Counted from the stretch's first letter, positions 16,923-35,959 are shown. The stretch: 64,000 bases of DNA from Candidatus Omnitrophota bacterium (GCA_015232565.1 JADFZK010000001.1:77160-141159); one strand, 5' to 3'. The notes: a model not told the origin generated them from the letters alone. Translations and numbers: made by a program.

Positions 16923-17800
16923 TGAAGATCCTGGTGACCGGGGCGAATGGTTTTATCGGGCGGGCTTGTGTGGCCGCGCTGGTGGCCCGGGGCCATGAGG
17001 TCGATGCGCTTGATCTGGCGGATACGGGTTGTTTTAGTACGATCGGGATCAATAGTTTTCATGCCTGTGACATTACTGCTCCATTTACGATCGCCGGTGT
17101 TTTTGATGTGGTGGTTCATCTGGCCGCTTACAATATTACTCATGTGGGAGATACCGATCCGGCTATCTACGATCGCGTTAATGTTAACGGGACGGCCAAT
17201 GTCCTGGCTGGAATAGATACGCGCAGGTTTGTCTTTCTATCGACCAGCAAAGTTTATGGCCGGGATCAGGCTGTTATTACGGAAGAGAGCTTGATCGCGC
17301 CGTCACAGCCCTATGAAAAGAGCAAATTAAAGGCTGAAGGGTTGCTTTTAAACGCGCGCAAGGATGGCGGATTGGTGATCTTGCGTTCGGTAAATGTTTT
17401 CGGGCCCGGCCAGCCGGAGAAAGCGGTTATCCCGATATTTTGTGCCCAGGCAATGCAGAATGCTCCGGTTAAAGTGGTTGCTCCACGTGGTTCGTGGTTG
17501 CAGTTTGTGTATATTGACGATCTGGTGCGCGCTTTGGTCCTGGCGGCTTCGGCTGTTGAGTTAGCGGGGATATATAACGTGTCAACGGATGAGACCCTGC
17601 GGTTGGATGCTTTGGCGTTAATGGTCAGGAAGGTTTGCGGATCAGGGTCGGAAGTTATTTTTACCGACGAACGCTCTGTGTCGCTGAGCCGGGTTTCTTT
17701 TGACAAGTTAAAAAATAAGACTGGCTGGGAGCCGGCGGTTGCTATTGAGGAGGGTGTTCGGCGTTATCATGAATATTATGTCCAAAAGCCTTCAGCCTAA
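16922..17800 (+). CDS. NAD-dependent epimerase/reductase (extended SDR; RmlD or 4-epimerase-like).
   Basis: It has the KILVTGANGFIGRACVAALVARGHEV Rossmann motif and a YEKSKLKAE catalytic YxxxK. Confidence 0.7.
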   Translation: MKILVTGANGFIGRACVAALVARGHEVDALDLADTGCFSTIGINSFHACDITAPFTIAGVFDVVVHLAAYNITHVGDTDPAIYDRVNVNGTANVLAGIDTRRFVFLSTSKVYGRDQAVITEESLIAPSQPYEKSKLKAEGLLLNARKDGGLVILRSVNVFGPGQPEKAVIPIFCAQAMQNAPVKVVAPRGSWLQFVYIDDLVRALVLAASAVELAGIYNVSTDETLRLDALALMVRKVCGSGSEVIFTDERSVSLSRVSFDKLKNKTGWEPAVAIEEGVRRYHEYYVQKPSA

Positions 17801-18896
17801 AGTTTTGGTGTGCGGGGTTCTGCCGCCGCCTTTTTTTGGCCACAGTGTGATCTACCAGATGCTGATGGCTTCCTCTTTTCCTGCCAATGTCCGGGTGCGG
17901 TTTTTAAATATGCATTTCTGGTCTTATCAGACTAACAAGAAGGTTACCGGCCAGAAGCTTGTAAAGATGGTTAAGTATTATCTTCAGTATGTCGCCGCAA
18001 TTGTTTTTTGGCGGCCGCGCTATGTGCTCTATAACAGCAGTTTTTATCGTATGCCGTTCTGGAAGGATTTTTTGTTTTGTGCTACGGGGATCGCGCTTGG
18101 GCGTCGGGTCGTGTTTCATGATCTGGGTCAGTATGTGCGAGAATTGCATGATGGTTTGCCGGTCTTTCAGCGTGCGCTGTTGCGCTGGATGTTGCGTCAT
18201 TCAGCGGGCAGTATCGTTATGGGTGAAAGTGTGCGGGCAACCTACAAAGGGCTAATGAATAATGAAAAGATATTTGTTGTGCCTGGCGTAGTTGAAGATA
18301 CGAAGACTTTCGCTGTTGTGCCTAACCGCCCGGCAGGCTGGTTGTTAAATGTGCTTTATTTTTCGCATATGAGCCGTCCCAAGGGGATATATGTCGCTTT
18401 TGAGGCGGCGGCCAGGATCTTGCGTGTCCGTAGGGATGTGGCGGTAACCTTTGCCGGTCCACTTGAGGATGATGAGGTTGCGCGCAAACTGGACGAATTA
18501 CAGCAGGCTTACCCTGGGAGGGTGCGTTATCTGGGTTACGTTGATGACGCTCGTGAACGCACAGCCATATTTCGCGGGGCTGACGTATTCATGTTTACAA
18601 CCTTGAGAGATGTTTTCGGGTTGGTCCTTCTGCATGCCATGGCCGAGGGTTTGCCCATAGTGGCTTCTGATGAAGGAACTATTCCCGAGATCCTGCTCGA
18701 CGAAGGTCATGGGCTTTTGTTTGCGAAGGGAGAGGCTTCGGAGCTTGTTGCGAAGATCCTTTGGTTGGCAGAGAATGAGGTTCACCGGAAAACCATGGGC
18801 GTAGCCAATCGGAAACGGTTCGAGGAAGTTTACAGCCTGGAACAATATGGCGCGATTATGACAAATATATTCAGAACTCTGGATGTTTGCACGTGA
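17769..18896 (+). CDS. Glycosyltransferase family 1 (GT4, retaining).
   Basis: The C-terminal domain has the EGLPIVASDEGTIPEIL (E-x7-E-like) motif. The start is assigned to the ATG at 17769 and is uncertain. Confidence 0.65.
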   Translation: MNIMSKSLQPKVLVCGVLPPPFFGHSVIYQMLMASSFPANVRVRFLNMHFWSYQTNKKVTGQKLVKMVKYYLQYVAAIVFWRPRYVLYNSSFYRMPFWKDFLFCATGIALGRRVVFHDLGQYVRELHDGLPVFQRALLRWMLRHSAGSIVMGESVRATYKGLMNNEKIFVVPGVVEDTKTFAVVPNRPAGWLLNVLYFSHMSRPKGIYVAFEAAARILRVRRDVAVTFAGPLEDDEVARKLDELQQAYPGRVRYLGYVDDARERTAIFRGADVFMFTTLRDVFGLVLLHAMAEGLPIVASDEGTIPEILLDEGHGLLFAKGEASELVAKILWLAENEVHRKTMGVANRKRFEEVYSLEQYGAIMTNIFRTLDVCT

Positions 18897-20040
18897 GATG
18901 TTACGATTTGAAAGGGAAAATGTGGACTTTTTGACTTTTTTTAGAGGGATGAAGAGATTTCGTATTCCATTAATTGTTACGTTAATTTCCGCTTATGCTT
19001 TTTATTTGCGATTGGTCCATTTAGCCGGTCATGACCTTTGGGTTGATGAGCTTTATCAAATCAGCCAGATGAATGGGACTTTCTTTCAGATGGTCCAAGG
19101 GCTTACCCGGAGTGAATATTGCGCTTATTTGTCTGCGGACTATTATCTTACGTATCCCTTTTATAAGATTTTCTCGATGAATAAGTGGGGGCTTGCCATT
19201 CCACATATGGGGGCAACCCTTCTTGGGTTTTATTTGCTTTATTTAATCTGTCGGCGTTATTTAAAGAGTGTATTGGGCTATGTTGTTACGTTCAGCATTG
19301 TGTGTTTTAACGCTACCTTGATCTGGCATGCTACAGAGATCAGGACGTACGCGGTTCTGCCCACGGTGGCATTGGCTTCTTTATATCTTTGGTTGAGGAT
19401 AATTGACGCGAATGGTTATTTGAGCATGGGGAAGAAAGTTGTCGCGGGAGTTGTGTTCGTTTTTATACTGTGGTTCCATGTTTATGGGATAGTGATGTTC
19501 TTTTTCACAGGACTTTATGCCTTGTTGACAAGGGTGAAGGATAAGTCATTCTTTATTATTCTAAAGAATGTTGCTCCTTTCGTGTTGGTGGTTCTTTGTT
19601 TGGCCGCGCCTTTGTGGCTATTGAGCACGTTCGGTCCGCATCTTGCCAATCCCACCAGTAATAACGATACGTTTCAATTTATCCCAAGTCCTTCCAGGGA
19701 TATGATCGGATTTCTTAAAGGCGTTTTCGGCAATCTTATCGGCGACAAAAGGCTTTATTTTTTGCTTCTGGGGGGTGTGGCGCCATTCGTTATTCCGTAC
19801 AGGCAGAGGTTTCATCAGATCATTTTCCTGATAGTGCTGGTGGTGGTGCCTGTGGGGACGATATTGTCAGGAAATATTCTTACGCACTACTGGTTTCTTC
19901 AACGGGGATTTATATGGGTGATGCCTATCTTCGCTTTGTTCATTGGGTGGTCCCTGGAGTCTTTTGTATTGTATGTGAAGGATAAATGCCAGTCTTCTGG
20001 GCAACGGATCGCCAGGAACTCGGACCTGAGAATTGAATAG
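18883..20040 (+). CDS. Polytopic membrane protein, possibly a GT-C-like glycosyltransferase.
   Basis: It has about 10 TM helices and a first-loop acidic motif HDLWVDELYQISQ. Its GC content is lower than that of its neighbours. Confidence 0.4.
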   Translation: MFAREMLRFERENVDFLTFFRGMKRFRIPLIVTLISAYAFYLRLVHLAGHDLWVDELYQISQMNGTFFQMVQGLTRSEYCAYLSADYYLTYPFYKIFSMNKWGLAIPHMGATLLGFYLLYLICRRYLKSVLGYVVTFSIVCFNATLIWHATEIRTYAVLPTVALASLYLWLRIIDANGYLSMGKKVVAGVVFVFILWFHVYGIVMFFFTGLYALLTRVKDKSFFIILKNVAPFVLVVLCLAAPLWLLSTFGPHLANPTSNNDTFQFIPSPSRDMIGFLKGVFGNLIGDKRLYFLLLGGVAPFVIPYRQRFHQIIFLIVLVVVPVGTILSGNILTHYWFLQRGFIWVMPIFALFIGWSLESFVLYVKDKCQSSGQRIARNSDLRIE

Positions 20041-20048
20041 GAGCGATA

Positions 20049-21158
20049 ATGGCTGTTAATATTAGAAAGCTTACAACGTTTGCCCGATTCGCAATAATTA
20101 AGGCGGCCCCTTTTTTGTGGCCTGTTATGGCACTTCGTCCGTATTCTGCGACGATCAATATTACGGATAATTGCTGCCTTAAGTGTGTGATGTGTAATCA
20201 ATGGCAGACGTATCATAAAGATGAGCTGAGCAAGGATGAGTGGATGCGGATTCTGGGTGAGTTGTATGTCTGCGGGGTGCGGGAGATCAATTTGACTGGT
20301 GGTGAACCGTTGTGCCGATCCGATATTTTCGAGATCATTGCCGAGGCCGTTCGATTGGGGATCAAGGTCGGTGTGTCCTCAAATGGTGATATGATCGATG
20401 ATGAGATGGCAGATCAATTGCTCAGGTTAGGGGTTAAGGATATTACTATATCGGTTGATGCGATAGGGCTCGAGTATGACCGTTTACGCGGGGTTAAAGG
20501 GGCGTACCAAAGGGTTTATCGGGCTTTGGAGATACTGTCTGCCTATAACCGGGACCGGAGGATGTCGGTGCTGGTGGCATTTGTTTTGATGAAAGACACG
20601 TTGACTTCCTATAAGGAAGTGGTGAACGCTGTTAGCCCTCTGGGCATTCCTGTTGTTGTTAATTTGTTTGATACGAGTCCGTATTTCTTTCAGATCAAGG
20701 GAGCTAGGGAGAGGTTTTGGGTGACGGAAAAAGAGATGTCGCGGTTGGCGGACTTGCAACAGTTTTTTGTTGAGCAAATCCAGATAGCTTCGGTGTTCAC
20801 CAAGCATCGTTTTGTGGACATTGATTTCTTTAAACGCTATTTTCGGGATCCACTACAGAAGGATCTTCCTTGTTATGTTTCCCAAATTCGTTTGAACATA
20901 GGTCCTAAAGGGCAGATCTTTGGCGGATGTTGGTCTTTGGGTGTTCATGGCGATTTACGCAAGAATCGGCTTCAGGAGATACTCAAGTCCAAGGCTTATC
21001 GTGCGATCCAGCAGAAAATGTTCAATAAGCAGTGCCCGGGGTGTTCGTGTGGCTATATTACAACGTTAAATTATTCTTTAGGTAATTGGGTAAAGGAACT
21101 TGTTTATCGTGCTTTTCCATCGGCACGGAGGGGAATTTATGCTGGTGTCAAAAAATAA
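20049..21158 (+). CDS. Radical SAM enzyme with a Cys-rich C-terminal (SPASM/twitch-like) region.
   Basis: It has NITDNCCLKCVMCNQW, a CxxxCxxC motif with an extra Cys. Additional Cys residues lie near the C-terminus (NKQCPGCSCGY). Confidence 0.6.
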   Translation: MAVNIRKLTTFARFAIIKAAPFLWPVMALRPYSATINITDNCCLKCVMCNQWQTYHKDELSKDEWMRILGELYVCGVREINLTGGEPLCRSDIFEIIAEAVRLGIKVGVSSNGDMIDDEMADQLLRLGVKDITISVDAIGLEYDRLRGVKGAYQRVYRALEILSAYNRDRRMSVLVAFVLMKDTLTSYKEVVNAVSPLGIPVVVNLFDTSPYFFQIKGARERFWVTEKEMSRLADLQQFFVEQIQIASVFTKHRFVDIDFFKRYFRDPLQKDLPCYVSQIRLNIGPKGQIFGGCWSLGVHGDLRKNRLQEILKSKAYRAIQQKMFNKQCPGCSCGYITTLNYSLGNWVKELVYRAFPSARRGIYAGVKK

Positions 21159-21277
21159 ATGCGGAGTTTGGTCTGGCTGGGGAAGTATGTCGGCTGATGG
21201 TCAGCTGAATTCTTTCATCGGTAGCGCGGGCGTTCTGTTGGTGGCCATATCCTTGGGATGGTAGGGTTGTTTTCTAC

Positions 21278-22222
21278 ATGTGGAGAATGATGCGATCACT
21301 TGAAATAAAGCCGCATGGACTTATGTTCCATCATTTTTATAACGAGAAGCATTGCCGGGGGCAGGGGGCTATATCTATTGGCCAGTTTGAGGCTGTCCTG
21401 ACTCATTACGAGAAGCACATCCTTTCGGCTGAGGAGTGGTTTAATAGGGCGGTGAGCAACTCGTTAAAGGATCATGATATTTGCTTGACCTTTGATGATG
21501 CGTTATTGTGCCAGTATGAGGTTGCACTTCCGGTGTTGGAGCGGTATGGTTTGACCGCGTTCTGGTTTGTTTATTCCTCCGTGCTGGACGGAGGTTTGGA
21601 GAAACTAGAGATCTACCGGAAATTCAGGACAGTGTGTTATGCATGTATTGATGACTTTTATTTGGATTTCTTCTCGCGGGTGAAGGCTTCGGCTTATAAT
21701 GACGCAGTGGAGTTGGCGTTAAAAGGATATGCACATGACAATTGGAAGTATTGTCCGTTTTATTCTCCTAATGACACAAAGTTCAGGTATATAAGAGATG
21801 TTGCTTTGGGTGTTGATAAGTACCAGGAACTTATGGACAGGATGATTTGCGAACAAGGGATAGATTTGGCTTCTTTTGCTTCTGATCTGTGGATGACGAA
21901 AGAACATGTTAGGAGTTTGTGTGCACGCGGGCATGTCATAGGGTTACATTCGCATACTCATCCGACTGTTCTGGCTGATCTGCCCGCGACCGAACAGCAA
22001 AAAGAATATGGACAGAATTACCGGTTTCTTAGAGATCTTCTTGGTAAAAGCCCGGAAGTGGTCTCGCATCCTTGTAATTCTTATAATGTGGAGACTTTGA
22101 AGATCCTGGCTGCGCTTGGTATTCGGTTGGGGTTTCGGGCTAACATGGCAGATCATCAATATTCAAGGTTTGAATTCGCGCGGGAAGATCACGCGAATGT
22201 GATCCGGAGGATCGGGCAATGA
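21278..22222 (+). CDS. Polysaccharide deacetylase family (NodB-homology) protein; possible de-N-acetylase or deformylase.
   Basis: It has ICLTFDDALLCQYEVALPVLERYGLTAFWF, the NodB motif 1 (TFDD), followed by His-containing motifs HSHTHP. Confidence 0.7.
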   Translation: MWRMMRSLEIKPHGLMFHHFYNEKHCRGQGAISIGQFEAVLTHYEKHILSAEEWFNRAVSNSLKDHDICLTFDDALLCQYEVALPVLERYGLTAFWFVYSSVLDGGLEKLEIYRKFRTVCYACIDDFYLDFFSRVKASAYNDAVELALKGYAHDNWKYCPFYSPNDTKFRYIRDVALGVDKYQELMDRMICEQGIDLASFASDLWMTKEHVRSLCARGHVIGLHSHTHPTVLADLPATEQQKEYGQNYRFLRDLLGKSPEVVSHPCNSYNVETLKILAALGIRLGFRANMADHQYSRFEFAREDHANVIRRIGQ

Positions 22223-23013
22223 AAGTAACCGTGTTTACTAGTAATCAGCCTAGGCATATCGCGCTCATTCATCGTTTGGCGACGGTTGCCGATGAAGTCT
22301 TTGCAGTTTTGGAATGTAATACTGTTTTTCCGGGACAGGTTCAGGATTTCTTTAAACGAACCAATGTTATGCAGGAATATTTTAGGCATGTGATCGAAGC
22401 GGAGAGGATGGTTTTCGGGTCCCTGGACTTTTTGCCGTCAAATGTAAGGTCTTTATCTTTGAGGTCTGGAGACTTGAGCTTGCTGGACATGAGCGCACTT
22501 GTAGCGGCGTTCCAAAGTGATTATTATATTGTTTTCGGGAGCAGTTATATCAGGAACGAGCTTGCTGATTTTTTGGTAGAGCATCAGGCGATTAATATTC
22601 ATATGGGTGTGTCACCTTATTATCGTGGAAATAGTTGTAATTTCTGGGCGCTTTATGACCGGAAGCCGGATTATGTGGGGGCGACGATCCATTTGCTGTC
22701 CAAGGGGCTGGATTCTGGCGCTATGCTGTTTCATGCTGTTCCCGCGGAGCAGGCAGTGGATCCCTTCGAGTTGGGCATGTTGGCGGTTCGGGCCGCGCAG
22801 AATGGCTTGTTGCAAGCGTTAAAGACGGGAGAGTTACTGAAGATGGTGCCCGTGCTTCAGGACAAGAGTCTCCAGATTAGGTATACTCGTAATAGCGATT
22901 TTAATGACGATGTTGCTTCCGGCTATTTAAGAAGCTTGCCGGGGAAGAATGACATTGGCCGTGCGTTAAGAGACCGGGATGTGGGATTGTTGTTGCGGCC
23001 TTATATTGAATAG
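22219..23013 (+). CDS. Formyltransferase-family protein (N-terminal Fmt/ArnA-N/PurN-like catalytic domain only).
   Basis: NIHMGVSPYYRGNSCNFWALYDRKPDYVGATIHLLSKGLDSGAML aligns closely with the Fmt core HGSLLPRWRGAAPIQRSL ... GVTIMQMDVGLDTGDML. Confidence 0.7.
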   Translation: MKVTVFTSNQPRHIALIHRLATVADEVFAVLECNTVFPGQVQDFFKRTNVMQEYFRHVIEAERMVFGSLDFLPSNVRSLSLRSGDLSLLDMSALVAAFQSDYYIVFGSSYIRNELADFLVEHQAINIHMGVSPYYRGNSCNFWALYDRKPDYVGATIHLLSKGLDSGAMLFHAVPAEQAVDPFELGMLAVRAAQNGLLQALKTGELLKMVPVLQDKSLQIRYTRNSDFNDDVASGYLRSLPGKNDIGRALRDRDVGLLLRPYIE

Positions 23014-23055
23014 AGTTCGTTTCTGGATCAGGCGTACAAGATAAGGAGAGGAATA

Positions 23056-25068
23056 ATGAACGTAGCTTTATTGGATCTCAACCATTTTACCCGCGGCGTG
23101 ACGAATAACACGGTGCCTCTTGGTCTGGGTATGATAGCCGCCTTTTTACGCAAACGGATCGGGGGTGCTCTGGACATCAGGATTTTCAAGGATACCAGCA
23201 AGGCCCTGGGTGTGTTTGCATCCTGGACTCCTGACGTGATCGGTCTTGCGCAGTATGTCTGGAACAGTGAACTCAATTTGTCCGTTGCCCGCATTGTTAA
23301 AGACAGGAATCCGCGTTGTTTTGTCGTCGTTGGTGGCCCTAACCTGGATTTGTCTGCGGCCCGGCGGATGCAGTATTTTATTGACCACCCGTTAGTGGAT
23401 GCCGGGATCCTTTATGATGGGGAGATCCCTTTTGCCGGGCTGGTTGGGAGGCTTATGGCCGGGGAGTCGCGGGAAAGCATCTGCCTGACCCCTTCGGCTG
23501 GTATGTACTCGTTTGACAGGAAAGAGAATGCTTTGCGGGAATCAGCCGAACCGCCGCCGCGTCTTTCCAGTCTTGACGAGATAGGGGCGATCTATGCCGA
23601 GGGCGTTTTTGACGAGTTTCTGAATGTTGGCTGTCATCCATTTCTGCAAACACATCGCGGGTGTCCTTTTACGTGTACGTTTTGCCATACTAGCGATTCC
23701 TATTATTCTCGGATGCTTTTTCTTTCCCCTGAGATATTTCGGCGTGAGATGGAGTGCCTGGGTAAACGCTATGCTGGCCGGCATGACGTGACCCTTTTTC
23801 TGGCCAACACGAATATGTCGCTTTTCCCGGAAGATTTTACGATCGCCGGGATCATTCGCGAGACTCAGGAGAAATACGATTGGCCGCGCAACATCAGCGT
23901 TAATTCGGGCAAAGATCCCAAGAAGTTGCTGGCAATGATGGATATACTCCGTTTTCAACCATCGATCGCACTTCAGACTTTGACGCCAGCTGTCCTGAAA
24001 AATATTAAAAGAATTAATATTCCTTTTGATAATTTTGTGTCTTTTCAGCGCGCAGTCCTTAAAGAGACCGGTGCCCCGTCGGTTACCGAATTGATCTTGT
24101 GTCTTCCAGGAGAGACCCGGGCCAGCTTTCTTGAAACGTTGTGCAGGGTGCTTAATTCCGGGGTTCAGTCGGTAGTGATCTATACGCTCATGTCGCTTAA
24201 AGGGACGGAACTGGTTTCGGAAGAGAGCATCCGTAAATATCGTTTCGATATTCGCCACAGGGTTGTTCCCCGGCAGTTTAGCGTTGTGTCTGGCCGGAAA
24301 GTTCTTGACACCGAGGCGGTTGTCGTAGCGACGGATACGATGTCCTTCGGAGATTATTTGGAATTACGGGGATTGTGTTTTACTGTGACCACGTTTTATA
24401 GTTCCCTTGAGTTGATGCCTATCAAGAAATTGCTCTTGGAAAGCGGTGTGGATGTTTCAGCTTGGGTGCTGGGCATTCACGCGCGATGTGCTCAGTTTCC
24501 TGATCTTGCGTATTATCATGATGAATTTATCAAGGAGACCCAGGCTGAACTATTTTTAACCCGGGAAGCGCTGACGGACTTTTTTGAGGATCCCCGGCAT
24601 TGGGAGGATCTGTGCCAGGGGCTTTACGGGGATAACCTTACGCGTAAGTATAAACAGTTGGTATTGACGAAATGTTATAAGACGCTGCTGGAAGTTGCTT
24701 TGTCCGAGGCAAGGGATTTGCTAGCCGCGAAGCTCCTGCCTGATATGCTCGAAGATCTTTTGCGTGATCTTAGGTCTTATTTGTCGGTCAGGGACGTACG
24801 GGACATTTTTGAAGGGACTTTGTCCCTTGAAGACAGGGTTGTAACTGTTGCGTATAATATTCCGTTATGGATGATGAACTCCAATCCCGCTCTTGGAATG
24901 AACGATTTTCGGGGCAGGACTTCATACCGGGTGATTTATCCTGTTGATATAAAGGAGAAAGCCCAGGAATTCGCGAGGTCGAATAAAGACAAGGAGTTGT
25001 CGTTGCAGATCATGTATCGCGATGGACTTATCAGTGATTTCTGGCCAAGATGGATTGAGAGCAAATGA
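23056..25068 (+). CDS. Large cobalamin (B12)-binding radical SAM enzyme (670 aa).
   Basis: An N-terminal B12-binding-like domain (VIGLAQYVWNSELN ... FVVVGGPNLD) is followed by HRGCPFTCTFCHTS (CxxxCxxC) and a long C-terminal extension. Confidence 0.7.
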   Translation: MNVALLDLNHFTRGVTNNTVPLGLGMIAAFLRKRIGGALDIRIFKDTSKALGVFASWTPDVIGLAQYVWNSELNLSVARIVKDRNPRCFVVVGGPNLDLSAARRMQYFIDHPLVDAGILYDGEIPFAGLVGRLMAGESRESICLTPSAGMYSFDRKENALRESAEPPPRLSSLDEIGAIYAEGVFDEFLNVGCHPFLQTHRGCPFTCTFCHTSDSYYSRMLFLSPEIFRREMECLGKRYAGRHDVTLFLANTNMSLFPEDFTIAGIIRETQEKYDWPRNISVNSGKDPKKLLAMMDILRFQPSIALQTLTPAVLKNIKRINIPFDNFVSFQRAVLKETGAPSVTELILCLPGETRASFLETLCRVLNSGVQSVVIYTLMSLKGTELVSEESIRKYRFDIRHRVVPRQFSVVSGRKVLDTEAVVVATDTMSFGDYLELRGLCFTVTTFYSSLELMPIKKLLLESGVDVSAWVLGIHARCAQFPDLAYYHDEFIKETQAELFLTREALTDFFEDPRHWEDLCQGLYGDNLTRKYKQLVLTKCYKTLLEVALSEARDLLAAKLLPDMLEDLLRDLRSYLSVRDVRDIFEGTLSLEDRVVTVAYNIPLWMMNSNPALGMNDFRGRTSYRVIYPVDIKEKAQEFARSNKDKELSLQIMYRDGLISDFWPRWIESK

Positions 25069-25280
25069 CATTAATATCTGTAAGCCTCAAAAAGAAAGAA
25101 GTGGTTCGTTGAAGTCGATTGTTTGATGCCTGTTGGCACGATATTGGCTGGAAATAGGTCTGGGATTCTTTGATCTCGAGAAATATCTGCCCTGATCGTA
25201 AGACGGCGTAGTTTCGCCGGCAAGTTTGTTAAGTGATCAACGAAGAAGCTGTTTGCACAATCTAATGTAATGAGGTGTTC

Positions 25281-26711
25281 ATGTTGAAGATTGGTAAGTT
25301 CTCTGTGTCGTGGATCATCTTTAGCGTTATTCTGGTTTCTTTATGTTACCGTATCTATTTGGCATGCACTACGAATATGATCATTTGCTGGGATTCTTTG
25401 GAATATCGGGACTTGGGGCGCTTGCTTCAGAATAATGACTTCCTGTCTTATTTTAAGGGAGGCCCTAGGCGGGAACCGATTTATCCTGTTTTGGTGTCGG
25501 TGGCGATGCATATGGAGTCGTGGAGTGGAATTGTTTACACCAGGATTCTGGCCGGTATCGGGGTAGGGATACTTTTTATTACACAGGTGTTGATGTACAT
25601 TGTTTTGCGTAAACTTAATGTCCGCATCTGGATTTGCGCGTTCATTCTTTTATATTTTGGTTTTTCACCAGCGATAAACAATACTGCTTTCAGCTTATAT
25701 TCAGAGATCTCAGTCCTGCCGTGGACGTTATTAAGCGCCTTGTTGATCGCGAAATCTTTTGAGACCATTATATCAAAGAATATTGTGCGAAGTTTCTTTG
25801 CGGGGGCGGGGATCGGATCGCTTTTTGTGATTATGACAATGATCAAGGCTCCTTTTGAGCTTGTTTTCTTCGTTTTTGTGGGGCTTTATTTTGTGCTGCT
25901 GTTGCGGGCGTTCATACAAAAGAACAGGCCTGTTATCATAAAAGCACTTGTTTTTATCTTTACACTTTGTTTGGTGTATGAAGTCCCGGTTACCGCTTAC
26001 AAAATGTTAAACAAAGTTTTCAATAATAATTACGCTCTTACCGGAAGAGGTAGTTGGGCACTTTATGGCGGCGTTGCGCTTAAGACCGAGCCTATGACAG
26101 CCAGGAAGATATTGACTGCAATTGCGCATATTCCTGGTAATGGTGCCTGTATGCGTTTCTTTTCCGAGGAAGAATGTACTTATTGGGAAGCATTTTCTGC
26201 CAGTGATGGTTTTGGGTTAGGAAAGTATGGCCAGGTTAGTTCTACAACGCCAGCGGCCGATGTTGACAGGGTTATTTTGGGAGATTGCAAAAAAAGGATC
26301 CTGGAGCATCCTTTTCAGTATGTTTTCATGTCCAGTTTCGATTGGATAAAAATGTTTTTTTGGGAATCGACCAAGATAGGGTTCGTTGAATATCCGCCCT
26401 GGCTGGAAACATTGTATAATAAGACGATTTTTAAAGATGGTTTGCGTTTATTGGTGTCTCTAGGGTCTTTAATAGCTTTCATCATATTGTTGCTTTCTAT
26501 TAGAAATCCAGTAAAGTTGACTGATTCGCAATGTCCGGCCACTAAAGAGCAATATTTGCGTTTTACAATTTTCGTTATCTTATTGTTCTACACTGGTTTA
26601 CATTCGATGTTTAATACAGTAACGCGGTGGGCATTGCCTCTGGCTCCATTGTATCTTGTTTGCGTGGGTTACGCTTTGCAACTCTTGTGGCCAAAGCCTC
26701 GGAGCAAGTGA
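25281..26711 (+). CDS. Polytopic membrane GT-C-like glycosyltransferase (ArnT/PMT-like).
   Basis: It has about 11 TM helices and an N-terminal loop ICWDSLEYRDLGRLL carrying an acidic motif. Its GC content is low. The ATG at 25281 is preferred because of the TGAGGTG ribosome-binding site. Confidence 0.5.
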   Translation: MLKIGKFSVSWIIFSVILVSLCYRIYLACTTNMIICWDSLEYRDLGRLLQNNDFLSYFKGGPRREPIYPVLVSVAMHMESWSGIVYTRILAGIGVGILFITQVLMYIVLRKLNVRIWICAFILLYFGFSPAINNTAFSLYSEISVLPWTLLSALLIAKSFETIISKNIVRSFFAGAGIGSLFVIMTMIKAPFELVFFVFVGLYFVLLLRAFIQKNRPVIIKALVFIFTLCLVYEVPVTAYKMLNKVFNNNYALTGRGSWALYGGVALKTEPMTARKILTAIAHIPGNGACMRFFSEEECTYWEAFSASDGFGLGKYGQVSSTTPAADVDRVILGDCKKRILEHPFQYVFMSSFDWIKMFFWESTKIGFVEYPPWLETLYNKTIFKDGLRLLVSLGSLIAFIILLLSIRNPVKLTDSQCPATKEQYLRFTIFVILLFYTGLHSMFNTVTRWALPLAPLYLVCVGYALQLLWPKPRSK

Positions 26712-26742
26712 TAATGTTGCCTTTTAACAATATTGGGAGCTT

Positions 26743-27504
26743 ATGATCCATTTCATCTTCCCCGTTTATAACGAAAAAGCCAATTTGCCGGAATTGATCG
26801 CGGGTATTCGCCGCCTTATGGCTGGCAAGGCTTACCGCATGGTGGCGGTCAATGACGGCTCTACCGACGGCTCGCTGGAATTCCTGAAAGAACAGCAAGG
26901 TGTGGATCTGGTAATTACCGGTTCGGTCATCAATATGAATGTCGGGGCGGTATTCTCCTCCGGGATCCATGAAGCGCTTAAGGGTGCCAAAGACGATGAT
27001 GTGATCGTCATTATGGAAAGTGACCAGACCAGTGAGCAAGAACTGGTCCTGCCGATGGCTGAGAGCATCGGCCTTGGAACTGCCGACATTGTTATAGCCT
27101 CGCGCTATGTTTCGGGAGGGAGATATGTTAATTTTCCTTTGCCGCGAGTGATCTTTAGCCATTGCGCCAATCGCCTTATGCGGGCTTTTTTCCCGGTTGC
27201 TTCAGTGCGTGATTACACAATATTCTTCCGGGCCTATCGGGCGGGCATCCTTAAGCGAGCCTCGGATTATTTCGGTCCGTTCGGCCTGATCCAGTCCAAA
27301 GGGTTTGTGGCCAACGCGGAACTCCTGGTAAAGCTGGCTTTCTTTACCGACCGTATTATGGAGGTTCCGTTCGTTTATAATTACGGCATGAAAAAAGGCG
27401 CCAGCAAGATCAACGTTCTGCGCACGATCAATGAGTACTTTACTCTGATAAATTATTTGAAACGCCTTATTTCGAAACATAGTGCTCTCGGGAGAAGAAT
27501 ATGA
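26743..27504 (+). CDS. GT2 polyprenyl-phosphate sugar synthase (Dpm1/ArnC/GtrB-like).
   Basis: It has IHFIFPVYNEKANLPELI and VAVNDGSTDGS, and is short (253 aa) with no TM anchor in the N-terminal half. This is typical of Dpm1-like GT2 enzymes that load sugars onto polyprenyl phosphate. Confidence 0.7.
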   Translation: MIHFIFPVYNEKANLPELIAGIRRLMAGKAYRMVAVNDGSTDGSLEFLKEQQGVDLVITGSVINMNVGAVFSSGIHEALKGAKDDDVIVIMESDQTSEQELVLPMAESIGLGTADIVIASRYVSGGRYVNFPLPRVIFSHCANRLMRAFFPVASVRDYTIFFRAYRAGILKRASDYFGPFGLIQSKGFVANAELLVKLAFFTDRIMEVPFVYNYGMKKGASKINVLRTINEYFTLINYLKRLISKHSALGRRI

Positions 27505-28538
27505 AGATCTTGATCACCGGCGGCGCCGGAATGGTGGGTTCGCACGCGGCGGAACATTTTGCCGGGCAGGGCAATCAGGTTCTGGTGTACGACAATCTTC
27601 TGCGTTCGCAGATCTTTGGGGTGGATACGCAGTCGGTCGAATTTAACTGGAAATATTTACAACGCTTCAAGAATATCAAGCTGGTCAAGGCCGATATCCG
27701 TGACCGGAAAACATTGGAAGCGACCTTACGGAAGTTCAAGCCCGATGCTGTTATTCATGCCGCGGGCCAGCCGGGTGTGGGGTTCTCCCTTAACGATCCT
27801 TGTGAAGACGCTTCCATTAATGCCACAGGTACACTGAACGTGGTCGAAGCTTTGCGTCAGGTTAACTCCAAAGCCGCGCTGGTTTACTGTTCCACAAATA
27901 AAGTCTACGGTGATAATGTTAACCTTTATCCCATCAGCGAGAAGAAGACCCGTTACGCCTTTCGGAACATCAAGGGTGTGCCGGAAACCTGTTCTATCGA
28001 TCATTGCGGCCATACTCCATATGGTGTATCCAAACTTACCGGCGATCTTTACGCCCAGGATGCCGCACAGTCGTTCGGTTTGCGCACCGGTGTTTTTCGG
28101 ATGAGTTGTACCTATGGCACCCGGCAATTTGGTTTTGAAGATCAGGGCTGGATCGCCTGGTTTGCTATCCGTTTTATGCAGGGCCGGCCGATCACGATAT
28201 ATGGCGACGGCAAACAGGTGCGCGATGTTCTATGGGTCGGCGATCTGGTTAATGCTTTCGATAAGTTTATTACACAGAAAGCGCCTTCCGGGGTTTTCAA
28301 CATGGGCGGCGGAGCGGATAATACGCTGTCCTTGCTTGAATTGCTCGAGCTCCTGGAAAGCATTACCGGCCGTGCGGTCAAGATCGGTTTCGACGACTGG
28401 CGCAAGTTCGACCAGAAAGTTTATATTTCCGATATTGCCAAGGTAAAGCGCGCGCTTAAATGGAAGCCGACCGTAGGGCCTCGTGAAGGCGTAAGCCGCA
28501 TTGTGCGCTGGATCCAGGATAATAGCAGGATCTTTTGA
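27501..28538 (+). CDS. CDP-paratose 2-epimerase (tyvelose epimerase, RfbE)-family extended SDR.
   Basis: It has MKILITGGAGMVGSHAAEHF, YCSTNKVYGD, TYGTRQFGFEDQGWIAWF, YGDGKQVRDVLWVGDLV and NMGGGADNTLSLLELLELLE. These are collinear with characteristic tyvelose-epimerase blocks. Confidence 0.7.
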   Translation: MKILITGGAGMVGSHAAEHFAGQGNQVLVYDNLLRSQIFGVDTQSVEFNWKYLQRFKNIKLVKADIRDRKTLEATLRKFKPDAVIHAAGQPGVGFSLNDPCEDASINATGTLNVVEALRQVNSKAALVYCSTNKVYGDNVNLYPISEKKTRYAFRNIKGVPETCSIDHCGHTPYGVSKLTGDLYAQDAAQSFGLRTGVFRMSCTYGTRQFGFEDQGWIAWFAIRFMQGRPITIYGDGKQVRDVLWVGDLVNAFDKFITQKAPSGVFNMGGGADNTLSLLELLELLESITGRAVKIGFDDWRKFDQKVYISDIAKVKRALKWKPTVGPREGVSRIVRWIQDNSRIF

Positions 28539-28566: not shown

Positions 28567-30081
28567 ATGAAAAGAGTTACCTGGTTGATCTTCCTTTCAG
28601 CTTTTCTTTTGCTTCGTCCATATAACTTCTCTACCACCGGACAAATGTATTCCGGTGATGATTGGTCTTATTTTGCGCATGCGTCCGCGTTGGCGTTTGG
28701 AGAATTCCCCTCTTATAGCAAGGAGTCCTGGATGACCGGAGAGGGTGTTCCGTCTCATTCGGTAGGTGCCGGAGTCCTGGCGGCCCCTTTTGTTTATCTG
28801 TTTTCGCGGTTAGATTTGCTAAATGGTAACGATATTGTTTCGGAACGAAAGCCGAACAACATTCCGGGTAGTTGGGCTTTATTCGGATTTGTGGTGGCGA
28901 GTTCAGTGTATTTCTGGTTAGCGTGTTTATTTCTTTTTCTTTCAGCTCGAATGTTCGTTAGCAGCACTGCCGCTTCCTGGGCGGTTATCGGGATGGTGTT
29001 GGTACAAGGCGCCCCGCTGTTTATTTTTCGTCGTCCGGTTTTCTCTCATGTTTATGAGCTGGTGTTATTGGCTTTCCTGGTCTGGTTGTTTTGCCGGGTG
29101 AAACAGGCCGGCGCGGTGTTCGGCCGGGGCAGTATGTTGGTGGCCGGAATAGCCGGTGGCCTTCTTTCTTTAACCAGACTGGATGATCTGGGTTTTGTAT
29201 TAGGTTTTCAGATCTTGTTCGTGTGGCAAATGAAGGGGGCCGTTTATCGTAAAGCGTTGGCCTTAGGCCTGATGGTTTTCCTGGGAGCCTTGGTGGTGGC
29301 GGTATTTAAAGTCTGGCCGGAAATGCTGGTTGCGCATCATTCTTTACATGGTGTTGATAATTTGATGAAGCACCTTTCTGTTTTGGATTATATGCGCAGG
29401 TTGTGGCATATCATCGTCGGGCCCGATTGGGGTTTGGTGTTTACGGCGCCTTTTATTCTGGTAACTGTCGTATTTTTGTATACTTCGGCTAACAGTGTTC
29501 TCGTTCAGTTTAAATGGATAAGTGTTTTGTTATTGATCAAGCTTTGGGTAGTGATGCAGTGGATGACCCAGGGTGGTTGGTATGGCTATCGTTATTTGCT
29601 TTTGAGTGCGATGGCCTTGTTGACAGTGCCGTTTGCGGTATTTCTGGAAGAGAAGGTTCTGAAAGGGGCATTATGGCGGCGAGTGGCAGTTGTGTTGATC
29701 GCTTTACCGCCACTTTTGTCGATGTTGTTCTTTGAGGGTAATGCCGAGGGGTTGACCTTGCATATTGTCGAGCAATATTTTGCTGTTAGTGGATGGGGTA
29801 ATAATATATATCAGTGGGAGGTGTGGAGAGCCTTATTGTGGACGCCTTTGGAGGCTGTTATGGTTTTGTGCAAAGGGGGAGTCTTGTATTTTTTCTATCT
29901 GTTCTGCCAGGCATTTTCTCTGGACAGCGTATTGCCAATTATTGTGCGTGGTAAATATCCGTCTTTTCAATGGGTCGTGCTGGTTAAGACTATTCTGGTT
30001 TATGTTATTCCGTTCGTTTTGTTTCTTTTATGGCAAGCCAGCAACTTTAAGCCCGGACGCAAAGCCTGGTTGCAAGAATAG
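28567..30081 (+). CDS. Polytopic membrane protein (504 aa), possibly a GT-C-like glycosyltransferase or polymerase.
   Basis: It has more than 10 TM helices and an N-terminal loop YSGDDWSYFAHASALAFGEFP with a DD motif. No soluble domain was recognised. Confidence 0.45.
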   Translation: MKRVTWLIFLSAFLLLRPYNFSTTGQMYSGDDWSYFAHASALAFGEFPSYSKESWMTGEGVPSHSVGAGVLAAPFVYLFSRLDLLNGNDIVSERKPNNIPGSWALFGFVVASSVYFWLACLFLFLSARMFVSSTAASWAVIGMVLVQGAPLFIFRRPVFSHVYELVLLAFLVWLFCRVKQAGAVFGRGSMLVAGIAGGLLSLTRLDDLGFVLGFQILFVWQMKGAVYRKALALGLMVFLGALVVAVFKVWPEMLVAHHSLHGVDNLMKHLSVLDYMRRLWHIIVGPDWGLVFTAPFILVTVVFLYTSANSVLVQFKWISVLLLIKLWVVMQWMTQGGWYGYRYLLLSAMALLTVPFAVFLEEKVLKGALWRRVAVVLIALPPLLSMLFFEGNAEGLTLHIVEQYFAVSGWGNNIYQWEVWRALLWTPLEAVMVLCKGGVLYFFYLFCQAFSLDSVLPIIVRGKYPSFQWVVLVKTILVYVIPFVLFLLWQASNFKPGRKAWLQE

Positions 30082-30125: not shown

Positions 30126-30677
30126 TTAGGTGTGTTCCAGGATAAATAACTGGTTGGCGCCCCATAAAAAACGCTGATATGCGCCGATCTTAAGGCGGCA
30201 TTCTTTCGTTAATTGATCCATTGCTGCCCAATCAAGATATTGATGATGTTCTTCTGCTGCGGAGTGGTTAAAGAGGCCCAGGCAGGCGCCAGTTTCGTAA
30301 ATCTTCCTAAAGGCCGGATGTGGCGTTGTGATTATGATCTTTCCTTCAGGTTCCAGCTTGTCGGCCAGTTTATGCATAAAAGAGCCGGGGTCAGCCAGGT
30401 GTTCAATAACGGCCAGTAAAGCGATAGTCCTGAATTTTATGTTTGGGGGCAGTTCGGCCATCAGGTGGAAACAATGGCGCGGATGATCCTTTTTTGCGCA
30501 AGCGATGGCTTCGGGGTTGATATCTGTTCCGGTATAAGAATTGGGATCAAAATATTGGGCCAGATGGCCTTTGCCACAGCCAACGTCCAGTATGGCCGGA
30601 GCGAGAAAGGGTTTGGCGGTATGCAGCCGGATAAAGCGCAGATAACCGGATAGAGCCCCATCGGCCTGTTCATTCAT
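30126..30677 (-). CDS. Class I SAM-dependent methyltransferase.
   Basis: It has ILDVGCGKGHLAQYFD (motif I GxGxG) and IIITTP downstream. It is one of only two minus-strand genes in the window. Confidence 0.7.
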   Translation of the reverse strand: MNEQADGALSGYLRFIRLHTAKPFLAPAILDVGCGKGHLAQYFDPNSYTGTDINPEAIACAKKDHPRHCFHLMAELPPNIKFRTIALLAVIEHLADPGSFMHKLADKLEPEGKIIITTPHPAFRKIYETGACLGLFNHSAAEEHHQYLDWAAMDQLTKECRLKIGAYQRFLWGANQLFILEHT

Positions 30678-31623
30678 GGGAAGCGTCTTTAAGTTGATCT
30701 TTCTTAAGGCGATATTGCACGTCTTCCATTATTCGCCGATTGATCGCGGAAACATCGGTAATGAACGCAGTGAGGATAATCTGAAATCCAAGGCCGAGCA
30801 GGATGGAGGCGGCTATCAGGGATTGAACATGGCCATTGCCGGAATGATGATAGAACAGCCACAGGAAGCGTATTATCATCAGGCTTCCTATTACAGCAAA
30901 AAAGGTTCCGATCGAGAAAAAGAATCGAAAAGGGTGGTAGTTTACTGATATCCTGATGATGGTTTGGAGAGAATTTAACACATATGAAAGGGTGCTTTTT
31001 GCCAGGCGTGAAGGGCGCAGGTAGCCGTTAACTCGGATGGGGACACTTACTACCGTCAGGTTCTTTTGTTTGGCCTGGATCAACATCTCCAGAGTATAAG
31101 TGTATTTGCTGAATATGTTTATCTTTAACGCCGCTTCCCGATTCAGGGCGCGAAATCCGCTGGTAGCGTCCAGTATATTGACTCCGCTTATCCAGCGGAC
31201 TATTGCGCTTCCAATGTTTTGCAAAAGTTTTTTAGTGAAAGAAAAATGCTGTATTTGGCCGATTGGCCTGGTGCCGATCACTATATCGGCGTGTTTTTGT
31301 GTTATTGGGGCGGTAAGTTTATTAATATCTTCCGCGTTGTATTGATTGTCGGCATCGGTATTTACAATTATATCGGCGCCCAGTTTTACGCTGGCTTCCA
31401 TTCCCATGGTGAAAGCGCGAGCCAGGCCCTGGTGAGAGGTCATTTTAACAATGTGATCGGCACCGTTCTGGCGGGCCACTTCGATTGTGTTGTCGGTACT
31501 GCCATCGTCTATTATCAACACTTTTACATCGCGACATCCGGTTACTGAACGCGGGATCTTGGCCAAGGTAACGGGTAGCGTAGCGGCTTCATTATAACAG
31601 GGTATTTGTATGAAAAGTTGCAT
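30670..31623 (-). CDS. Glycosyltransferase family 2 (membrane-anchored by C-terminal TM helices).
   Basis: It has MQLFIQIPCYNEAATLPVTLAKI and LIIDDGSTDNT, with C-terminal hydrophobic helices. The ATG at 31623 is preferred (MQLFIQIP). Confidence 0.7.
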   Translation of the reverse strand: MQLFIQIPCYNEAATLPVTLAKIPRSVTGCRDVKVLIIDDGSTDNTIEVARQNGADHIVKMTSHQGLARAFTMGMEASVKLGADIIVNTDADNQYNAEDINKLTAPITQKHADIVIGTRPIGQIQHFSFTKKLLQNIGSAIVRWISGVNILDATSGFRALNREAALKINIFSKYTYTLEMLIQAKQKNLTVVSVPIRVNGYLRPSRLAKSTLSYVLNSLQTIIRISVNYHPFRFFFSIGTFFAVIGSLMIIRFLWLFYHHSGNGHVQSLIAASILLGLGFQIILTAFITDVSAINRRIMEDVQYRLKKDQLKDASHE

Positions 31624-31659
31624 GGCATTAATGATATTAAAAAAATACCTAAATAACAA

Positions 31660-31797
31660 TGTTTTTCGGTACGTAATTATATTATGCTTTTATGCCAAGG
31701 CTTGATTTGTGTTGCTTAGTGACCGGTTCAAATGTTTTTTATGAATTTAATTTGTGCTGGCTGGCTTGATCGTGTTTGAAACTATAACGGATTCTTT
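31660..31797. promoter_or_regulatory. AT-rich divergent intergenic region between the minus-strand GT2 gene and the plus-strand wecB-like gene; probable bidirectional promoter region.
   Basis: The 138-bp non-coding stretch is strongly AT-rich (aaaaaatacctaaataacaatgttttt ... tttttatgaatttaatttg) and lies between divergently oriented starts. Confidence 0.3.
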
Positions 31798-32547
31798 ATG
31801 ACCACCTATAGCGTTCTGGATATTCAGGTTTCCGCGGTTAATCCCGACCTGGCGTTCTCTGTTATTCGCGATCTTGTTGCTTCCCGTGCTAAAGCTTATG
31901 TTTGCGTGGCACCGGTGTCTACTATTGTGGACGCGCGGCGTGATCCGCAGTACCGGGCGGTGGTTAACGCCGCGGCTATGGTAACGCCGGATGGCGCTCC
32001 GGTGGCCTGGCTGGGGCGTTGGCACGGGCATAAGTCCGTGCGCCGGACTTATGGGCCGGATCTTATGTTGCAGGTCTGCGCTGAAGGCCGTGCGCAGGGA
32101 TTTCGTCATTTTTTCTATGGCGCAAGCGCCCCTGTTTGTGATAGATTGGAACACAATTTAAGGTCCCGGTTCCCAGGCATTCACATAGCGGGCAAGATTG
32201 CTCCGCCTTATATTAGTAAAGCCGCAGTGTTGGCGGACGCCGTGATCAAGGAGATCAATGCCGCGCGCCCGGATGTGCTGTGGGTGGGGCTGGGGTCGCC
32301 CAAACAGGATCTTTGGATGGCGCTAAACCGTGCGGCTTTGGATGTGCCGGTAATGATCGGCATTGGCGCGGCGTTCGACTTTATCGCCGGCGAGAAGCCG
32401 CAGGCGCCCGGCTGGATGCGGGCTTGCGCGCTCGAATGGCTTTTTCGGTTATGTTGCGAACCCCGGCGGCTCTGGAAGCGTTATCTGCTGGGCAACACCT
32501 TGTTTATTTTCTGGTTGATCAAGGACGCTGTTTTTAAACGCCGTTAA
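31798..32547 (+). CDS. WecB/TagA/CpsF-family glycosyltransferase (GT26).
   Basis: It has VLDIQVSAVNPDLAFSVI and VTPDGAPVAWLGRWHG, characteristic of GT26 N-acetylmannosaminyl/glucuronosyl transferases. Confidence 0.75.
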   Translation: MTTYSVLDIQVSAVNPDLAFSVIRDLVASRAKAYVCVAPVSTIVDARRDPQYRAVVNAAAMVTPDGAPVAWLGRWHGHKSVRRTYGPDLMLQVCAEGRAQGFRHFFYGASAPVCDRLEHNLRSRFPGIHIAGKIAPPYISKAAVLADAVIKEINAARPDVLWVGLGSPKQDLWMALNRAALDVPVMIGIGAAFDFIAGEKPQAPGWMRACALEWLFRLCCEPRRLWKRYLLGNTLFIFWLIKDAVFKRR

Positions 32548-32586
32548 GAAAGCACCTTTAGGGAAATCTTCGGAGATAAGGCCTTA

Positions 32587-34001: not shown

Positions 34002-34005
<4 letters not shown>
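32587..34005 (+). CDS. Polyprenyl-phosphate sugar phosphotransferase (WbaP/bacterial sugar transferase family); initiating enzyme.
   Basis: It has N-terminal TM helices and a central Rossmann-like domain ([15 protein letters not shown]). The C-terminal Bac_transf domain reads [18 protein letters not shown] ... [25 protein letters not shown] ... [13 protein letters not shown]. Confidence 0.8.

Positions 34006-35958
<1,953 letters not shown>

Positions 35959-35959
<1 letters not shown>

Follow-up and report, generated by a model that had tools for sequence, protein, structure and literature searches.

A NodB–formyltransferase cassette in an Omnitrophota surface-polysaccharide cluster: comparative analysis and candidate functions

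Variation in the N-acyl groups of bacterial amino sugars and nonulosonic acids shapes immune recognition, phage adsorption and flagellar assembly, and the enzymes for N-modification of pseudaminic acids, and for most non-acetyl N-substituents, have been described as ‘largely unknown’ (PMC11040635). Here, we analyze a window of 64,000 nt from a Candidatus Omnitrophota bacterium, focusing on positions 21278-28538, where the gene of a NodB-family de-N-acetylase (NodB) directly precedes that of a stand-alone formyltransferase (FT), followed by genes for a B12-binding radical-SAM enzyme, a GT-C-fold membrane protein, a glycosyltransferase of family GT2 and an extended short-chain dehydrogenase/reductase (SDR). 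An earlier prediction made from the sequence (hereafter the original prediction) had read the set, the radical-SAM gene left unnamed, as an Arn-like system for lipid-linked sugar modification that lacks an aminotransferase. We tentatively favor a different joint reading, held with somewhat less than even confidence, in which the region would be a mosaic within a surface-polysaccharide cluster rather than one Arn-type pathway, and in which the NodB–FT pair would de-N-acetylate and then N-formylate a nucleotide-activated amino sugar in the cytoplasm.

The Arn pathway for 4-amino-4-deoxy-L-arabinose (Ara4N), comprising ArnB, ArnA, ArnC, ArnD, ArnT and ArnE/F, resembles the locus in that formyltransferase, NodB-fold amidase, GT2 and GT-C superfamilies all occur here within 7.3 kb. 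However, the locus has no ArnB-type aminotransferase and no SDR of the UDP-GlcA decarboxylase type, its nearest relatives are PseJ/VioF, PplD/PgaB, dolichyl-phosphate-mannose (Dol-P-Man) synthase and STT3/PMT, NodB comes first and is translationally coupled to the FT, and the four genes stand together in 0 of 83+5 comparison loci. The Arn analogy holds at the superfamily level only, because every part has closer relatives outside the Arn system, the aminotransferase and decarboxylase are absent, and the genes do not travel together.

Closer to the FT are the sugar N-formyltransferases PseJ, VioF, WbtJ and dTDP-Qui4N formyltransferase, its best solved relatives (E-values from 5.5e-8 to 5e-5). 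Enzymes of the PseJ/VioF class share with it an Asn-His-Asp triad and an H-x-x-x-x-P-x-x-[RK]-G loop, and the likeness to PseJ extends to context, as the 264-aa family to which the FT belongs often accompanies nonulosonate clusters. Yet the similarity is limited to about 75-110 core residues and lies far below curated family cut-offs; furthermore, the known enzymes use an amine made by a DegT aminotransferase, whereas the 264-aa family is tied to NodB, often with no DegT gene nearby.

The logic that we propose for the pair also has precedents. In the synthesis of Nod factors (NodB/NodA) and of lipid A (LpxC/LpxD), the C2 amine of a substrate derived from GlcNAc is first uncovered by a de-N-acetylase and then given a different acyl group by another enzyme; the deacetylase fold found here has NodB as its founding member. 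The cassette would follow the same deacetylate-then-re-acylate scheme if its two enzymes act on one nitrogen, with the difference that its second step falls to a folate-dependent formyltransferase in place of an acyl-ACP or acyl-CoA transferase. A further parallel is the leg cluster of Ca. Kuenenia stuttgartiensis, in which a deacetylase and a formyltransferase lie within a legionaminic-acid cluster (SugarBase preprint, bioRxiv 10.64898/2026.04.20.719630), although that deacetylase is of the PIG-L/LmbE family and is split from the formyltransferase by a WbqC-family gene, and the window holds no leg genes. We considered this cluster as a direct precedent and set it aside, since a PIG-L deacetylase not adjacent to the formyltransferase makes it an analogue, not a homologue, of the pair. 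With enzymes of known superfamilies and a logic already represented by NodB/NodA, LpxC/LpxD and the Kuenenia cluster, the system is not categorically new.

The NodB–formyltransferase pair

The start codon of the FT gene overlaps the stop codon of the NodB gene by 4 nt (ATGA). To place this arrangement in context, one genome per GTDB species was scanned, yielding 125 FT relatives, of which 80 loci were fetched and 3 more added by exact look-up, for a total of 83. These comparison loci come from about 15 phyla, with FT identities of 52-68%, and among the best 120 FT matches identity stays at 56-70% across distant phyla. The FT–NodB cassette is present in at least 125 species-representative genomes, including Paenibacillus, Halobacillus, Lachnospira, Gimesia, Magnetospirillum and Omnitrophota. 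NodB is found in 75 of the 83 loci and lies directly upstream of the FT on the same strand in 72, a recurrence by which chance adjacency is excluded; the 4-nt overlap is kept in 59 of 78. A DegT gene, by comparison, occurs within 10 kb in only 20-22 of the 83, and no third gene is a constant neighbor across the comparison loci. NodB–FT is a translationally coupled, self-contained and horizontally mobile cassette, and the obligate partner of the FT is NodB, not an aminotransferase. A tblastn search of the FT against the PLSDB plasmids gave no match, and literature searches found no paper describing a NodB–formyltransferase pair. One apparent NodB–FT fusion, a 589-aa open reading frame (ORF) in locus L067, was rejected, as it reflects a long stop-free stretch upstream of the FT with NodB in another frame.

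The NodB protein, whose true start, like that in NCBI, is probably M16 at 21323, retains the features expected of an active enzyme of its class. T71-F72-D73-D74, H224, H228, P265, Y269 and H305 are invariant across 33 homologues, so that the TFDD motif (D73, D74), H224-S-x-x-H228 and H305 preserve the metal triad and the catalytic Asp and His. Its AlphaFold2 model (pLDDT 91) matches structures of carbohydrate esterase family 4 (CE4) at probability 1.00 in Foldseek, with PplD first (8.6e-13), followed by PgaB, BpsB and IcaB (to 9e-8) and then peptidoglycan deacetylases; PplD is also the closest relative by sequence (3.7e-16). ArnD, to which the original prediction had likened the protein, is a distant relative by fold (8t0j, rank 31 among the Foldseek matches, E 2.3e-3, TMq 0.35) and does not appear among the sequence-level matches at E ≤ 1. 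The conserved metal triad, Asp and His are shared with PplD, PgaB, IcaB and BpsB, but those enzymes work on finished polymers and are either secreted or anchored in the membrane, whereas the present protein has neither a signal peptide nor a transmembrane-like segment, is soluble, is coupled to a cytoplasmic folate enzyme and carries an additional helical insertion of about 90 residues (109-192).

In the FT, the Asn-His-Asp triad (N126, H128, D165) is invariant across 27 homologues and lines up with the catalytic Asn/His/Asp residues of those solved sugar N-formyltransferases that match it best, among them 6v2t and PseJ. A family-profile search against solved structures, ranked by E-value, placed PseJ first (5.5e-8), followed by VioF (1e-6), dTDP-Qui4N formyltransferase (2e-6), the F domain of LgrA (4e-5), WbtJ (5e-5), ArnA (2.8e-4), Fmt (6e-4) and PurN (6.7e-3). 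By this ranking the FT is a sugar-type formyltransferase rather than a housekeeping one, as the original prediction had anticipated, and ArnA is not its nearest relative. Public annotations call the 264-aa family ‘methionyl-tRNA formyltransferase’ or ‘PurN’; given the ranking among solved structures and the genomic context, these labels are almost certainly wrong. The FT also lacks a signal peptide and any transmembrane-like segment. From their sequences, both members of the pair look catalytically competent, and the substrate of the two would be cytoplasmic, because neither protein has a transmembrane segment or signal peptide and the folate donor is cytoplasmic. Genomic context points to a nucleotide-linked amino sugar as the acceptor of the FT.

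That context was counted over the 64 loci of at least 12 kb. Of these, 29-30 have nonulosonic-acid genes no more than 10 kb from the cassette, among them NeuB, CMP-synthetase, Epimerase_2, DegT, a PtmE-like CBS-nucleotidyltransferase, a PglD-like acetyltransferase and HisH/HisF-type amidine genes. Some cassettes are found among flagellar genes or beside Maf/MptE-like proteins, and many stand alone amid housekeeping genes such as rpoD, guaA and permeases. A PglD/LegH-type N-acetyltransferase is kept in 18 of the 28 NeuB-containing loci, which argues that the FT does not simply replace such an enzyme. We also considered separate FT subfamilies for nonulosonate and other contexts and rejected them, as median pairwise identity shows no separation (55% and 57% within the two contexts, 56% between them). 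The other Omnitrophota cassette (locus L007) lies between a WecA-like GlcNAc-1-P transferase gene and rmlA, and its 10 kb contain no nonulosonate genes.

The window itself showed neither an aminotransferase nor nonulosonic-acid genes. Pfam scans of essentially all large ORFs in the window found no aminotransferase domain, and a DegT profile hidden Markov model (HMM) built from 22 relatives had no match among its six-frame ORFs of at least 60 aa, which bears out the absence of an aminotransferase noted by the original prediction. Furthermore, profile HMMs for the set of NeuB, CMP-synthetase, hydrolysing 2-epimerase, DegT and PglD/LegH-type N-acetyltransferase found none of these in the 64 kb.

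The GT-C, GT2 and SDR genes and a putative inserted block

Downstream of the cassette, the 478-aa membrane protein (25275-26711) has no sequence-level match in PDB or Pfam. Its AlphaFold2 model is of high confidence (pLDDT 94.4, pTM 0.93), and the top 17 Foldseek matches are all GT-C enzymes, so that membership of the GT-C fold is supported by the predicted structure. Within this list STT3 leads (1.9e-4), with PglB, Pmt1/2 and ALG3/9 behind it; ArnT, to which the original prediction had likened the protein, comes at rank 12 (E 0.037, TMq 0.31). D40, in the first loop, is invariant among the homologues. The family is mostly Omnitrophota and essentially unannotated, its named members being Omnitrophota, and the five loci examined around its homologues have no NodB, FT or Dpm1/ArnC-like GT2 neighbors.

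The best solved relative of the 253-aa GT2 is the Dol-P-Man synthase of P. furiosus (5mlz, 1.3e-17, residues 3-237), against 9e-8 for ArnC, the likeness originally proposed, and 5e-3 for GtrB; NCBIfam gives weak matches to AglJ, ArnC and PpgS, all far below cut-offs. We regard the protein as probably a polyprenyl-phosphate hexose synthase. The SDR is closest in PDB to CDP-tyvelose 2-epimerase (9rl0, 4.1e-72; 1orr, 4.6e-71), with UDP-glucose 4-epimerase next (1e-40) and UDP-GlcA decarboxylases at about 1e-26 to 4e-26, and in NCBIfam its top matches do not include the ArnA-type model; it is probably a C2 epimerase of nucleotide sugars whose product the GT2 uses. Close relatives of the GT2 occur in only two loci of the metagenome scan, too few for neighborhood statistics, and in one of the two (L090) the GT2–SDR pairing is kept, at 70% and 64% identity. 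The arrangement of a Dol-P-Man-synthase-like GT2 beside one or more GT-C-fold proteins, with an epimerase placed to supply the donor, recalls Dpm1/PMT, GtrB/GtrC and PpgS/Rv3779, from which it differs in that the GT2 is only 253 aa long, with no transmembrane segment or amphipathic anchor identified, and in that no GtrA-type flippase was identified.

The next gene encodes a polytopic protein of 504 aa (28567-30081) with no Pfam or PDB match, from a small family of 247 cluster representatives in which D31, in a GDD motif after the first transmembrane segment, is invariant. It may be a second, unrecognised GT-C-type transferase; an hhalign comparison of its family with that of the GT-C protein at 25275-26711 gave a probability of 0.3, which is not significant.

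A syntenic Omnitrophota locus (L085) helps to delimit the modules. Its genes correspond to those of the window for a 660-aa protein, for RmlB (70% identity) and a nucleotidyltransferase (76%), and for an SDR and a GT4 (63%); the GT4 gene of L085 is followed directly by a GT-C homologue (L085/L086 6850-9410). Relative to it, the window has five extra genes at 18883-25068, encoding a membrane protein with a weak PMT_2 match, a radical-SAM/SPASM enzyme, NodB, the FT and the B12-radical-SAM enzyme. Because the GT4 directly precedes the GT-C gene in L085, this stretch looks like an inserted tailoring block. The B12-radical-SAM enzyme (23056-25068) best matches the KedN5 C-methyltransferase family in NCBIfam (121.7 bits, cut-off 700) and is not conserved with the cassette, having a single weak homologue among the 83 loci; it is probably a separate tailoring enzyme, a C-methyltransferase.

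Across the 83 cassette loci there is no relative of the window's GT-C protein, and a very weak GT2 match appears in only 2. The cassette and the GT-C/GT2/SDR module are most economically read as independent, given the absence of GT-C relatives from those loci, the occurrence of the GT-C family without the cassette, and the position of the cassette in a block inserted relative to L085.

Two side observations concern the GT-C homologues. They repeatedly adjoin a methylenetetrahydrofolate reductase gene (PF02219; L084 16173-17036, L087 9346-10218), and one 779-aa homologue (P0166) itself carries PF02219. Additionally, beside the homologue in the Omnitrophota locus L084, positions 1564-7303 encode a 706-aa fused SDR+DegT protein, a CTP_transf_3 cytidylyltransferase, a Polysacc_synt_2 dehydratase and two carbamoyltransferases, a gene set by which some Omnitrophota make CMP-activated amino sugars.

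Candidate functions and their relative weight

The joint reading that we favor divides the region into two modules. In the first (21278-23013), the metal-dependent NodB would cleave the acetyl group from the nitrogen of a nucleotide-activated N-acetyl amino sugar, a UDP/GDP-HexNAc-type precursor or derivative, and the FT would formylate the freed amine with N10-formyl-tetrahydrofolate through its catalytic triad, the net result being conversion of an acetamido sugar into a formamido sugar. No aminotransferase would be needed in the cluster, because the nitrogen would come from the housekeeping UDP-GlcNAc pool and the amine would be exposed by the deacetylase. In the second module (25275-28538), the tyvelose-epimerase-like SDR would make a C2-epimerised NDP-hexose, the Dol-P-Man-synthase-like GT2 would load this hexose on polyprenyl phosphate, and the GT-C protein, perhaps together with the 504-aa protein, would move it to the glycan outside the membrane. 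The analysis establishes the protein families, catalytic residues and folds, how the pair is coupled and distributed, and the lack of aminotransferase and nonulosonic-acid genes in the window; the substrate of the pair, the order of its two steps, their action on the same nitrogen and the sugar of the second module are what we infer.

Such an acetyl-to-formyl swap explains why NodB, not DegT, is the partner of the FT, why cassettes can stand alone, and how the cluster can do without an aminotransferase. The PglD/LegH-type acetyltransferases kept in NeuB-containing loci fit the editing of a GlcNAc-derived nitrogen, and the WecA-like GlcNAc-1-P transferase gene beside the other Omnitrophota cassette points the same way. 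Moreover, 5-N-formyl-legionaminic acid occurs in nature (PMC6137143), and metabolomics ties the deacetylase and formyltransferase of the Kuenenia leg cluster to CMP-nonulosonates bearing formyl and free amino groups, so that such editing takes place there on nucleotide sugars (bioRxiv 10.64898/2026.04.20.719630).

Several points weigh against it. The function of the NodB–FT family is proposed from sequence, fold and context, and the nearest characterised formyltransferases (PseJ, VioF and dTDP-Qui4N formyltransferase) take as their acceptor a C4 amine, the product of an aminotransferase, and not a C2 amine that deacetylation has released. The Kuenenia authors treat their formyltransferase as a substitute for LegH and label it ‘legH/fmt’, the product carries one formyl group and one free amine, which suggests two different nitrogens, and the deacetylase is of the PIG-L family, not NodB (bioRxiv 10.64898/2026.04.20.719630). 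As for the second module, its GT2 does not have the membrane anchor of most polyprenyl-phosphate synthases, and its sugar is a guess from the nearest structures. Finally, the real substrate may be an intermediate of a nonulosonate pathway encoded outside the 64-kb window, whose source contig is 141.6 kb long, since nonulosonate genes accompany the cassette in nearly half of the long loci and FT sequences are not split by context.

This last point can be developed into a distinct explanation, which we take as the main and a serious rival, though less probable than the reading above. In it, the cassette would edit a 2,4-diamino sugar or a nonulosonate of the legionaminic/pseudaminic type whose core pathway, including DegT/LegC, lies elsewhere in the genome, and the two enzymes would act on different nitrogens: the FT would formylate the C4-derived amine (the future N7), like PseJ, replacing or working beside LegH/PseH, while NodB would remove the GlcNAc-derived acetyl group (the future N5), so that an aminotransferase would be required after all. 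A free 4-amino sugar tends to cyclise after removal of the nucleotide, which favors early acylation of N4. The nonulosonate neighborhoods of 29-30 of the 64 long loci, the cassettes in flagellar or Maf loci and the first rank of PseJ among the solved relatives of the FT all agree with this, as does the inseparability of FT sequences by context, which suggests one function throughout, and as do the Kuenenia products and annotation. Set against these are the absence of the whole nonulosonate set from the 64 kb and from the 10 kb of the other Omnitrophota cassette, the retention in 18 of 28 NeuB loci of a PglD-like N-acetyltransferase that would compete for the same amine, and the fact that the FT's obligate partner is NodB rather than DegT. 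The Arn-like lipid-linked route, in which the FT formylates, the GT2 loads undecaprenyl phosphate, NodB deformylates and, after flipping, the GT-C protein adds a cationic sugar outside, we judge very unlikely. The presence of four Arn superfamilies within 7.3 kb on one strand, the intact FT triad and NodB motifs, ArnC among the solved relatives of the GT2 (9e-8), and ArnT and ArnD as detectable distant structural relatives give it some footing, but the SDR resembles tyvelose 2-epimerase (4e-72) rather than a UDP-GlcA decarboxylase, no aminotransferase is present, NodB is far nearer to PplD and PgaB than to ArnD, and the GT2 is nearer to Dol-P-Man synthase. Its genes do not form one set either: the adjacency of the pair to GT-C, GT2 and SDR recurs in 0 of 83 loci, the other cassette loci lack a GT-C relative and essentially any related GT2, and GT-C homologues are found without the cassette. 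In most genomes, moreover, the coupled NodB–FT pair has no lipid-transfer gene, so that formylation followed by deformylation would be futile there. The original prediction had named two findings that would overturn it, an FT that clusters with Fmt/PurN and a NodB protein that lacks its catalytic His and Asp; neither applies, and by these criteria the idea is not refuted. What stands of it is the genes themselves, all six ORFs of the region being confirmed in their coordinates and + strand, the family assignments, the theme of sugar N-formylation and the apt remark that the amine comes from elsewhere or the acceptor differs; the lipid-linked formylate/deformylate scheme does not hold, since each of its parts has a closer non-Arn relative.

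Least probable of all, to the point of being hardly credible, is that the pair acts outside sugar metabolism, with the FT formylating an amino acid, peptide or small metabolite (cf. LgrA), the NodB-like protein acting on another amide, and the position in glycan clusters incidental. The F domain of LgrA is indeed among the solved relatives of the FT (4e-5) and many cassettes sit amid unrelated housekeeping genes, but PseJ, VioF and dTDP-Qui4N formyltransferase outrank LgrA, the closest NodB folds are all carbohydrate de-N-acetylases, and the cassette shows strong enrichment in clusters for nonulosonates, flagellin glycosylation and polysaccharides.

Returning to the acetyl-to-formyl swap, we also entertain, as an unlikely extension, that NodB–FT is a general portable acetamido-to-formamido editor that acts on a common precursor (UDP- or GDP-GlcNAc) upstream of any host pathway. 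If so, two genes would recode N-acetyl sugars as N-formyl sugars without an aminotransferase, hexosamines here and legionaminic or pseudaminic acids elsewhere, which would explain the conservation of about 55-70% over about 15 phyla and the occurrence both in glycan clusters and alone. More broadly, the cassette is a candidate maker of formamido sugars such as 5-N-formyl-legionaminic acid, and its recognition corrects a tempting mis-annotation under the current names ‘methionyl-tRNA formyltransferase/PurN’ and ‘polysaccharide deacetylase’. The significance of the window itself is more modest, as an Omnitrophota surface-glycan cluster that acquired the cassette plus other tailoring genes.

The surrounding glycan cluster

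Bases from about 1 to 37200 form a single large surface-polysaccharide cluster. Its genes, partly listed in Table 1, include several for SDRs and for glycosyltransferases of families GT2 and GT4, together with those for a sulfotransferase, an acyltransferase and a methyltransferase. Its sugar-nucleotide genes at 2275-17800 (+), comprising RmlA, RmlB, the second nucleotidyltransferase and further SDRs, yield deoxyhexoses, and none yields an amine. Past the cluster lie housekeeping genes, namely pgk, tpi, an Opp-type transporter, a GlmU-like enzyme, ETF and SMC.

Table 1. Features of the studied region and of the glycan cluster around it
Feature	Position	Strand	Evidence
RmlA	2275-3159	+	433.8 bits vs cut-off 360.7
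RmlB	15169-16203	+	419.8 bits vs cut-off 365.1
Second nucleotidyltransferase	16200-16922	+	Pfam
385-aa membrane protein (weak PMT_2), then radical-SAM/SPASM enzyme	18883-21158	+	PMT_2 E 6.4e-4, below cut-off; Radical_SAM 94.7 bits plus SPASM
NodB/CE4-family de-N-acetylase	21278-22222	+	Polysacc_deac_1/NodB PF01522, 66.7 bits (Pfam)
Formyltransferase (FT), stand-alone, 264 aa	22219-23013	+	Formyl_trans_N PF00551, 31.3 bits vs cut-off 26.1
B12-binding radical-SAM enzyme	23056-25068	+	Radical_SAM 42.5 bits, B12-binding 29.5 bits (Pfam)
GT-C-fold membrane protein (predicted), 478 aa	25275-26711	+	No Pfam match; AlphaFold2 model and Foldseek
GT2, soluble, 253 aa	26743-27504	+	PF00535, 60.3 bits
Extended SDR, CDP-tyvelose-2-epimerase-like	27501-28538	+	166 bits
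Polytopic membrane protein, 504 aa, family unassigned	28567-30081	+	About 12 transmembrane-like segments
Rest of surface-glycan cluster: methyltransferase and GT2 (both on - strand), WecG/TagA-family transferase, Bac_transf initiating phosphoglycosyltransferase, GDP-mannose dehydratase, fucose-synthase-like SDR, Wzy_C/O-antigen-ligase-like protein	30126-37203	mixed	Pfam

At its start (45-8291), the cluster encodes a GmhA-like SIS isomerase, an inositol-monophosphatase-like protein, a D-2-hydroxyacid dehydrogenase, RmlA and a transketolase whose N and C halves are separate ORFs, along with a second B12-radical-SAM enzyme (HpnJ-like), a GT2 and DUF4915; together these genes suggest the synthesis of a branched or chain-extended sugar. 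A Sulfotransfer_3-family gene follows within the cluster (8296-9222) and suggests that the surface polysaccharide is sulfated. Two polytopic membrane proteins without a Pfam match, of 546 aa (10162-11802) and 611 aa (13337-15172), are candidates for a polymerase or flippase. The latter has 30% identity to the 660-aa protein of the syntenic locus L085 and, over a local stretch, faintly resembles the Wzy_C protein at 35959-37203.

Between the radical-SAM/SPASM gene and NodB lies a hairpin with an 8-bp stem and a T-rich tail (21190-21208). A promoter and terminator scan of 17.5-32 kb returned counts equal to those of shuffled controls and is thus uninformative on operon structure. Nearly all large ORFs of the window are on the + strand, the exceptions being at 30126-31659; GC skew is positive over the whole window and cumulative skew climbs monotonically, consistent with a leading-strand segment that has no origin or terminus inside it. 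Lastly, a 2212-aa ORF at 56665-63303 has as its sole recognisable domain a central HATPase_c module (residues 1006-1115).

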